From Escherichia coli (GTDB taxonomy: Bacteria > Pseudomonadota > Gammaproteobacteria > Enterobacterales > Enterobacteriaceae), in assembly GCF_001677475.2 (NCBI RefSeq), contig NZ_CP015229.1: a stretch of DNA of 64,000 bases; one strand, given 5' to 3'. Below, piece after piece: positions 7,263-8,133 of this stretch (within the stretch, counting starts at the first letter, position 1; each line of letters starts with the position of its first letter). The translations under genes were made by a program, and so were the position numbers. The notes beneath the pieces are model-generated. The model saw only the letters and a list, made by a program, of their open reading frames with translations, ran no database searches and had not been told where the DNA came from.

Positions 7263-7297
7263 AATGCATTTGCATTACCTTAGTTCAAGCTTATAAT
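7263..7297 (+). promoter_or_regulatory. prlF-yhaV promoter with palindromic operator over the -35
   Basis: Palindrome aatgca-tt-tgcatt at 7263-7276; TTGCAT (7269-7274), 17 bp spacer, TATAAT (7292-7297); SD aagga before the ATG at 7334. Confidence 0.6.
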
Positions 7298-7333
7298 TTG
7301 AGCAGAAAACAGGCTGTAAAAGGACAGTGAATC

Positions 7334-7669
7334 ATGCCCGCTAATGCTCGCTCTCACGCTGTACTGACCACTGAATCAAAGGTCACGATACGCGGACAAA
7401 CAACTATCCCCGCGCCAGTGCGTGAGGCCTTAAAACTGAAGCCAGGCCAGGACAGCATTCATTACGAAATTCTGCCTGGTGGGCAAGTATTTATGTGCCG
7501 ACTGGGAGATGAACAGGAGGATCATACTATGAATGCATTTTTGCGTTTTCTGGATGCAGATATCCAGAACAACCCGCAAAAAACTCGTCCATTCAACATT
7601 CAACAAGGAAAGAAACTTGTCGCTGGCATGGACGTCAACATTGATGATGAGATTGGCGACGACGAATAA
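7334..7669 (+). CDS. prlF: Type II antitoxin PrlF (SohA), 111 aa
   Basis: 111 aa ORF; stop TAA overlaps the yhaV ATG by 1 nt (TAATG at 7667-7671); acidic C-terminus. Confidence 0.9.
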   Translation: MPANARSHAVLTTESKVTIRGQTTIPAPVREALKLKPGQDSIHYEILPGGQVFMCRLGDEQEDHTMNAFLRFLDADIQNNPQKTRPFNIQQGKKLVAGMDVNIDDEIGDDE

Positions 7670-8133
7670 TGGATTTTCCACAAAGGGTTAATGGTTGGGC
7701 GCTATATGCTCATCCCTGTTTTCAGGAAACCTACGACGCTTTAGTTGCCGAAGTCGAGACATTAAAGGGAAAAGATCCTGAAAATTATCAGAGAAAAGCC
7801 GCCACAAAGTTATTGGCGGTAGTCCATAAAGTGATTGAGGAGCATATCACGGTCAATCCATCATCACCGGCATTCCGTCATGGCAAGTCGTTAGGCTCTG
7901 GGAAAAATAAAGACTGGTCACGGGTAAAATTTGGTGCTGGTCGTTATCGTCTCTTCTTTCGTTATAGTGAAAAAGAGAAAGTCATCATTCTGGGATGGAT
8001 GAACGATGAAAACACTCTGCGCACCTACGGTAAAAAAACAGATGCCTATACCGTATTCAGCAAAATGTTAAAAAGAGGACATCCTCCTGCCGACTGGGAA
8101 ACCCTCACCCGAGAGACAGAAGAAACCCATTGA
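7669..8133 (+). CDS. yhaV: Type II toxin YhaV (ribonuclease), 154 aa
   Basis: 154 aa ORF translationally coupled to prlF. Confidence 0.9.
   Translation: MDFPQRVNGWALYAHPCFQETYDALVAEVETLKGKDPENYQRKAATKLLAVVHKVIEEHITVNPSSPAFRHGKSLGSGKNKDWSRVKFGAGRYRLFFRYSEKEKVIILGWMNDENTLRTYGKKTDAYTVFSKMLKRGHPPADWETLTRETEETH

Follow-up and report, generated by a model that had tools for sequence, protein, structure and literature searches.

The chromosomal prlF-yhaV toxin-antitoxin operon of Escherichia coli and the probable self-repression operator on its core promoter

The described system closest to the locus analysed here is prlF (sohA)-yhaV of Escherichia coli K-12 (Schmidt et al. 2007, J Mol Biol 372:894, cited in PMC7781912, PMC5408214 and PMC8138530), and it is the same locus. 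The toxicity of YhaV and its rescue by PrlF go back to Schmidt 2007 as summarised in PMC7781912 and PMC3021852. The same study, in the account given by the review PMC7781912, describes a PrlF2-YhaV4 hexamer, which binds as a cooperative dimer of hexamers to palindromic prlF promoter DNA. PrlF governs the expression of prlF-yhaV (PMC5408214) and the toxin is possibly needed as a co-repressor (PMC8138530). YhaV is a known ribonuclease, whose activity is lost when two conserved arginines are replaced (PMC5408214), and it cleaves mRNA on the ribosome (PMC7781912, PMC11980606). A Reg-Seq preprint includes prlF and yhaV among its listed promoters, with no result for either in its main text. Toxicity and rescue, the hexamer, the binding of palindromic promoter DNA and the ribosome dependence are taken from this literature; the gene structure, the family membership, the predicted folds, the gene pairing and the conservation of the operator on the core promoter were established in our analysis.

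Two other systems are useful for comparison. In mazEF, the antitoxin MazE is of the AbrB type, with the same kind of swapped-hairpin DNA-binding domain as PrlF, and the antitoxin-first operon is likewise autorepressed via palindromic promoter DNA. The toxins differ, as the fold predicted for YhaV is that of RelE and not the MazF/CcdB fold, and PrlF scores below the cut-off of the MazE_antitoxin model (Pfam: PF04014), with 19.5 versus 24.7 bits. The toxin is the point of likeness to relBE: the YhaV model shares the RelE/ParE fold, with the PDB entries 4fxh and 4fxe among its top matches, and according to the literature both toxins cleave mRNA in a ribosome-dependent manner (PMC7781912, PMC11980606). 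YhaV has about 60 residues more than RelE, and its model has two long N-terminal and two extra C-terminal helices. Further differences from relBE are the antitoxin fold, which is ribbon-helix-helix in RelB and another one in PrlF, and the reported PrlF2-YhaV4 stoichiometry.

The stretch of DNA that we analysed, called the window in the following, is 64,000 nucleotides long and carries prlF-yhaV between garP/garD upstream and agaR/kbaZ/agaV downstream. There are 148 bp between garD and prlF (7186-7333) and 54 bp between yhaV and the convergent agaR, the same intergenic distances as those tabulated for K-12 (PMC5120126). The order garD, prlF, yhaV, agaR is also that of K-12, and the putative operator, the -35 and the -10 are identical in a K-12 derivative. 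We saw no substantial difference: the 148-bp region departs from that of strain KLY at 3 positions, all of them outside the operator and promoter blocks. We read the locus as the chromosomal type II toxin-antitoxin operon prlF-yhaV of E. coli, which represses itself through a palindrome, and we give this explanation as a whole a probability of about 0.88. prlF-yhaV is an already known, textbook chromosomal pair and is found here at its usual E. coli place. The features of the locus are the following.

7208..7243, plus strand: intrinsic terminator of garD, with a 10-bp stem AAAACATGGC/GCCATGTTTT, a 6-nt loop (cttagt) and a T-rich tail.
7262..7277, no strand: putative PrlF-YhaV operator, the perfect palindrome TAATGCA-tt-TGCATTA, within the footprint 7259-7279 (TAATAATGCATTTGCATTACC).
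7269..7275, plus strand: predicted -35 element, either TTTGCA at 7269-7274 (17-bp spacer) or TTGCAT at 7270-7275 (16-bp spacer).
7292..7297, plus strand: predicted -10 element TATAAT, in the block TATAATTT (7292-7299) that is invariant in a six-taxon alignment.
7320..7324, plus strand: Shine-Dalgarno-like AAGGA, 9 nt 5' of the prlF ATG, read from the sequence and presumed to function as such.
7334..7669, plus strand: prlF, antitoxin and autorepressor of 111 aa, identical to WP_001307405.1 (annotated PrlF); an N-terminal AbrB/SpoVT/MazE-type DNA-binding half-domain at about residues 11-56, then C-terminal helices and an acidic tail.
7669..8133, plus strand: yhaV, ribonuclease toxin of 154 aa with a predicted RelE/ParE fold, annotated YhaV; its start overlaps the prlF stop (TAATG).
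8146..8180, no strand: hairpin rich in GC, TGCCCGC...GCGGGCA, situated in the 54 bp that separate yhaV from the convergent agaR.

The two genes are co-oriented, and at their junction, CGACGAATAATGGATT (more fully GAATAATGGAT), one A is common to the TAA stop and the ATG start. An earlier note on this DNA had described a 111 aa antitoxin and a 154 aa toxin coupled by TAATG, situated between the gar and aga clusters, and had called the system known rather than novel. The coupling is confirmed by the open reading frame listing together with the junction sequence, the position is borne out by the neighbouring genes, and we judge the third statement to be right. An antisense open reading frame of 83 aa at 7430..7681 was set aside as being without support.

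An alignment of YhaV was used to scan one genome per species, which yielded 80 loci in other genomes. A prlF homologue is located directly upstream of yhaV in 79 of the 80, and the distance from the antitoxin stop to the toxin start is between -4 and +5 nt in 70 of these 79. The locus of Taklimakanibacter lacteus has a spacer of 105 nt between prlF and yhaV, compared with -4 to +5 nt in most loci. With adjacent, co-oriented and tightly coupled genes whose pairing is conserved, prlF-yhaV has the organisation of a type II toxin-antitoxin operon.

Profile searches of both proteins had been named in the earlier note as a check of their families, and they place both where it expected them. PrlF matches PrlF_antitoxin (Pfam: PF15937) over profile positions 1-99 of 99 (E 6.2e-42, 142 bits, cut-off 32) and the NCBIfam equivalog NF007429 with 170 bits (cut-off 125). 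As with the MazE_antitoxin model, whose weak match covers residues 16-39, the single PrlF sequence remains just under the cut-off of TIGR01439 (27.1 versus 28.3 bits). A profile built from 20 PrlF sequences, taken from loci fetched for this analysis, reaches the PDB structures of the AbrB family 5itj, 5itm and 2l66 and those of SpoVT 2ro5 and 2w1t at residues 7-54, with E values of 1.5e-4 to 8e-4. The N-terminal half-domain of PrlF is thus homologous to the AbrB/SpoVT/MazE type by profile search, and the secondary structure of the PrlF model is strand-helix-strand-strand. The model of the monomer has a pLDDT of 75 and a pTM of 0.40, and a fold search with it returned noise only (best E 0.5), as is expected because this domain folds only as an intertwined dimer. 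A sequence search of the PDB gave no solved relative of PrlF.

YhaV matches Toxin_YhaV (Pfam: PF11663) over profile positions 1-137 of 138 (E 7.8e-54, 182 bits, cut-off 35); no NCBIfam model matched it. An AlphaFold (AF2) model, built from an alignment of 18 sequences, has a pLDDT of 90.4 and a pTM of 0.86. When this model was compared with the PDB by Foldseek, ranks 1 to 43 were all toxins of the RelE/ParE superfamily, with a best E value of 8.7e-5 and TM-scores, normalised to the target, of up to 0.79. The matches include PfiT, RelE, HigB2, RelE1/2 of M. tuberculosis, YoeB and ParE. The model thus predicts for YhaV a RelE-like (BECR) fold, in which an antiparallel sheet is packed on N-terminal helices. 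A PDB sequence search with YhaV found no solved relative, only a spurious designed protein. Among 18 YhaV homologues, which are 49-100% identical to the E. coli protein, the residues R85, K87, R92, R94, R98, R118, Y120 and K123 are invariant.

Upstream of prlF, the earlier note had pointed out a palindrome AATGCA-tt-TGCATT overlapping the -35 of a sigma70-like promoter (TTGCAT, 17 bp, TATAAT). This palindrome is present at 7263-7276, and its arms are in fact 7 nt and not 6 nt long, TAATGCA at 7262-7268 and TGCATTA at 7271-7277, with a spacer of 2 nt. TTGCAT and TATAAT are present too, with 16 bp between them and not 17 bp, the latter spacing being that of TTTGCA. The pair TTTGCA/TATAAT is the best sigma-70 match in 7000-8400, at 10 of 12 positions. 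In either reading the -35 falls within the palindrome's right arm, so the overlap described before is true whichever hexamer is taken. The promoter is predicted from its match to the consensus and from its conservation, and the transcription start of prlF would be near 7304-7305.

The palindrome is not significant by itself. When perfect inverted repeats are counted whose arms have 7 nt or more and whose spacer does not exceed 4 nt, the whole window has 28, against 25.4 +/- 4.8 in first-order Markov simulations, and about 8% of simulated intergenic regions with the length (148 bp) and composition of this one hold such a repeat. As the palindrome alone is within chance expectation, the case for an operator rests on its conservation. 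We aligned the intergenic region from six taxa, namely the window, a K-12 derivative, two other E. coli, E. albertii and Pseudocitrobacter, whose PrlF is 75% identical. Three conserved islands are found amid variable sequence: the stem of the garD terminator, 7259-7279 and 7292-7299. The island at 7259-7279 (TAATAATGCATTTGCATTACC) consists of 21 consecutive columns without a single change between E. coli and Pseudocitrobacter, in contrast to its diverging flanks.

Homologous sites are also found in more distant Enterobacterales. Cedecea davisae, with a PrlF of 56% identity and different neighbours, has ATGGTAATGCAATTGCATTACCAT, in which TTGCAT is followed after 17 bp by TATACT. In the uncultured enterobacterium UBA7338 (PrlF 51% identical, different context), the second of two tandem copies reads TGCAATGCA-tt-TGCATTGCA, and here TTGCAT is followed after 17 bp by the -10-like TAAAAT. 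The two operator-like dyads of this metagenome-assembled Enterobacteriaceae genome are adjacent, at about 2063-2100 of its locus; the other one is TGCAATGC-aaac-GCATTGCA, and the outer bases of the dyads are CAAT and not GTAA or TAAT.

A related arrangement occurs in 74 alphaproteobacterial loci, whose PrlF is 30-40% identical. It has the form TTGACA-N3-GTAAGGAAtaTTCCTTAC, with the consensus cCTTGACaa.GTAAgGaattTTCCTTAC.T. In 56 of 64 distinct contexts the dyad begins 3 nt past TTGACA. Its right end provides the first bases of a -10-like TACnnT. Hybrid sites (GTAATGCAnnTTCCTTAC, GTAATGCAATTTCCTTAC and GTAATGCGATTTCCTTAC) bridge the enterobacterial and the alphaproteobacterial types of half-site. 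The outer pattern TAA-N10-TTA, in its fuller form (G)TAA-N10-TTA(C), precedes prlF in 79 of 80 cases (the window and 79 loci, mostly alphaproteobacterial), a count that overstates the number of independent observations since the alphaproteobacterial loci are phylogenetically related. TAA-N10-TTA has 96 matches in the 407 kb of loci, about 17 of which are outside the upstream sites. A stricter version of the family pattern occurs in the 64-kb window at 7262 and once more at 15764, where it is not a dyad. Between the groups the flanks are unalignable, yet the dyad is retained, and so is its place on the core promoter.

A palindrome that the family as a whole keeps on its core promoter is comparative evidence that prlF-yhaV is autoregulated, and the palindrome at 7262-7277 is very probably the operator of this self-repression. 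That 7262-7277 is the site bound by the complex we infer from the sequence comparison. The architecture had been described before as the one expected for repression by the toxin-antitoxin complex, which is supported by a footprint that travels with the operon and by the promoter binding summarised in PMC7781912. The palindrome picked out in the earlier note is now backed by independent comparative evidence, and it has been sharpened to a 16-bp perfect dyad in a 21-bp invariant block.

The simulations would also allow the palindrome to have arisen by chance in an intergenic region rich in AT, with PrlF-YhaV binding elsewhere in the promoter region or with no regulatory role for the palindrome, as the window has no excess of such repeats and roughly one in twelve simulated regions holds one. 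We consider this very improbable. The 21-bp block is invariant between diverging flanks, the same core recurs in the unrelated genomic contexts of Cedecea and UBA7338, and a related palindrome occupies a fixed promoter place in nearly all loci, with few matches elsewhere in the 407 kb. Moreover, the complex binds a palindromic promoter sequence according to the review (PMC7781912). The direct repeat TGCATT-TGCATT, which is indeed present at 7265-7276, could instead be the relevant element and offer two direct half-sites. This reading was rejected, as the homologous sites keep the dyad and not the repeat (GGTAATGCAATTGCATTACC in Cedecea, GTAAGGAATATTCCTTAC in Alphaproteobacteria), and its chance of being correct is minimal.

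It is likewise highly unlikely that the palindrome is the site of an unrelated host regulator, for example CpxR or another global factor. The consensus of CpxR is a direct repeat, GTAAA-N5-GTAAA, unlike the inverted repeat at 7262-7277. The only CpxR-like sequence that we saw is downstream of the palindrome in the predicted 5' leader of prlF, GTAAA-N6-GTGAA at 7316-7331, which resembles a CpxR box loosely, with a spacing that is off by one and one imperfect repeat. A role of this kind would agree with the reports that prlF mRNA drops in Cpx-activating conditions, partly in a cpxR-dependent manner, and that prlF is CpxR-repressed (PMC9600279). However, in both Gamma- and Alphaproteobacteria, and next to differing neighbour genes, the motif is inherited together with prlF-yhaV, as is expected for a cognate operator and not for a site that belongs to a host regulator.

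With the palindrome as the self-repression operator, the operon could work as follows. The sigma-70 promoter (-35 at 7269-7275, -10 at 7292-7297) would give rise to a bicistronic mRNA that begins just past the garD terminator. From this mRNA prlF would be translated first, and yhaV would be translationally coupled to it via TAATG, which would tie the synthesis of the toxin to that of the antitoxin. A PrlF dimer would build one DNA-binding module from its two N-terminal AbrB/MazE-type swapped-hairpin half-domains, and each such module would read one half-site. The C-terminal part of PrlF would bind and neutralise YhaV, which would act as a RelE-fold ribosome-dependent mRNA endonuclease. The PrlF2-YhaV4 complex may read the inverted half-sites TAATGCA and TGCATTA, and two complexes probably bind cooperatively. 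The half-sites have their centres 9 bp apart and would thus face the same side of the helix. Since the -35 falls in the right half-site, RNA polymerase would be blocked when this half-site is occupied, presumably by steric occlusion, so that the operon represses itself. Once the labile antitoxin is lost, YhaV would be freed and the promoter derepressed.

The only mildly new item at this locus is the operator pattern of the family as a whole, which occupies a different part of the promoter in Alphaproteobacteria than in Enterobacterales. A tentative reading, to which we give slightly less than even odds, is that (G)TAA-N10-TTA(C) is an ancient, family-wide operator code. Its inner bases would have changed between TGCA in Enterobacterales and GGAA in Alphaproteobacteria, with the promoter being remodelled around the operator. 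The latter would fill the spacer and the start of the -10 after TTGACA in Alphaproteobacteria, and in Enterobacterales its right arm would supply the -35. We came across no paper describing such a pattern, although the literature was not searched specifically for it. If it is unreported, it would form a natural series for how swapped-hairpin domains of the AbrB/MazE type read DNA. Neither protein has an experimental structure, and the operators of the distant relatives are ready natural variants for studies of DNA recognition in this class of antitoxins.

The operon is flanked by hairpins on both sides. The garD terminator folds as RNA with -12.4 kcal/mol (z = -3.7), its stem is kept in the alignment from E. 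coli to Pseudocitrobacter, and it shields prlF from garD read-through. The hairpin at 8146-8180 has z-scores of -1.9 on the plus strand and -2.4 on the minus strand and no clear T-run on the plus strand, and could possibly be a shared bidirectional terminator of yhaV and agaR.

The segment 7100-8300 was matched by megablast in 5,359 of 5,426 complete E. coli genomes, in 5,118 of them with a coverage of at least 80%, and the matched segments are annotated as garD, prlF, yhaV and agaR. For the 148-bp intergenic region 7186-7333, none of the 5,167 matching E. coli genomes is 100% identical and 129 have an identity of at least 99%. The best among the matches listed has 99.3%, and no difference seen falls within the operator or the -10.

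The window is collinear with the genome of E. coli KE55 from yhaC/rnpB to ibaG, with 98.3-98.7% identity, and 88.9% in the first 457 bases. The collinearity weakens at 1-505, whose first 457 bases are the yhaC region, and at 24234-24325, where some 90 bases between yraQ and dolP have no alignment to KE55. The fimbrial genes yraHIJK are absent between agaI and rsmI/lpoA in the window as they are in KE55. The earlier note had taken prlF-yhaV for the only toxin-antitoxin or defence-like module in the window, and in agreement with this the annotation of the collinear KE55 stretch contains no second toxin-antitoxin or defence gene. PADLOC gave no match for PrlF or YhaV at E <= 0.01, which does not place them among the anti-phage defence systems.

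No RNA family of Rfam was found in 7100-8300, even at E <= 1. Elsewhere in the window the matches at the gathering score are RNase P RNA (548-924, minus strand), the SraG sRNA (38468-38639, plus), the S15 leader (38869-38983, minus), naRNA4 (40496-40566, minus), the rimP leader (45265-45365, minus), the greA leader (56052-56173, minus) and two tRNAs (45457-45530 and 49316-49399, both minus), as one would expect in this region of the E. coli chromosome.

One E. coli genome shows a different arrangement at the locus. In strain EC23HZZ201 (NZ_CP168035.1, 2410625-2416688) the match to the garD-prlF intergenic region ends after 65 bases (window 7186-7250) and is followed by IS1A and then by yraI/yraJ. 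It appears that an IS1-associated deletion took out the operator, prlF-yhaV and the whole aga cluster in this strain.
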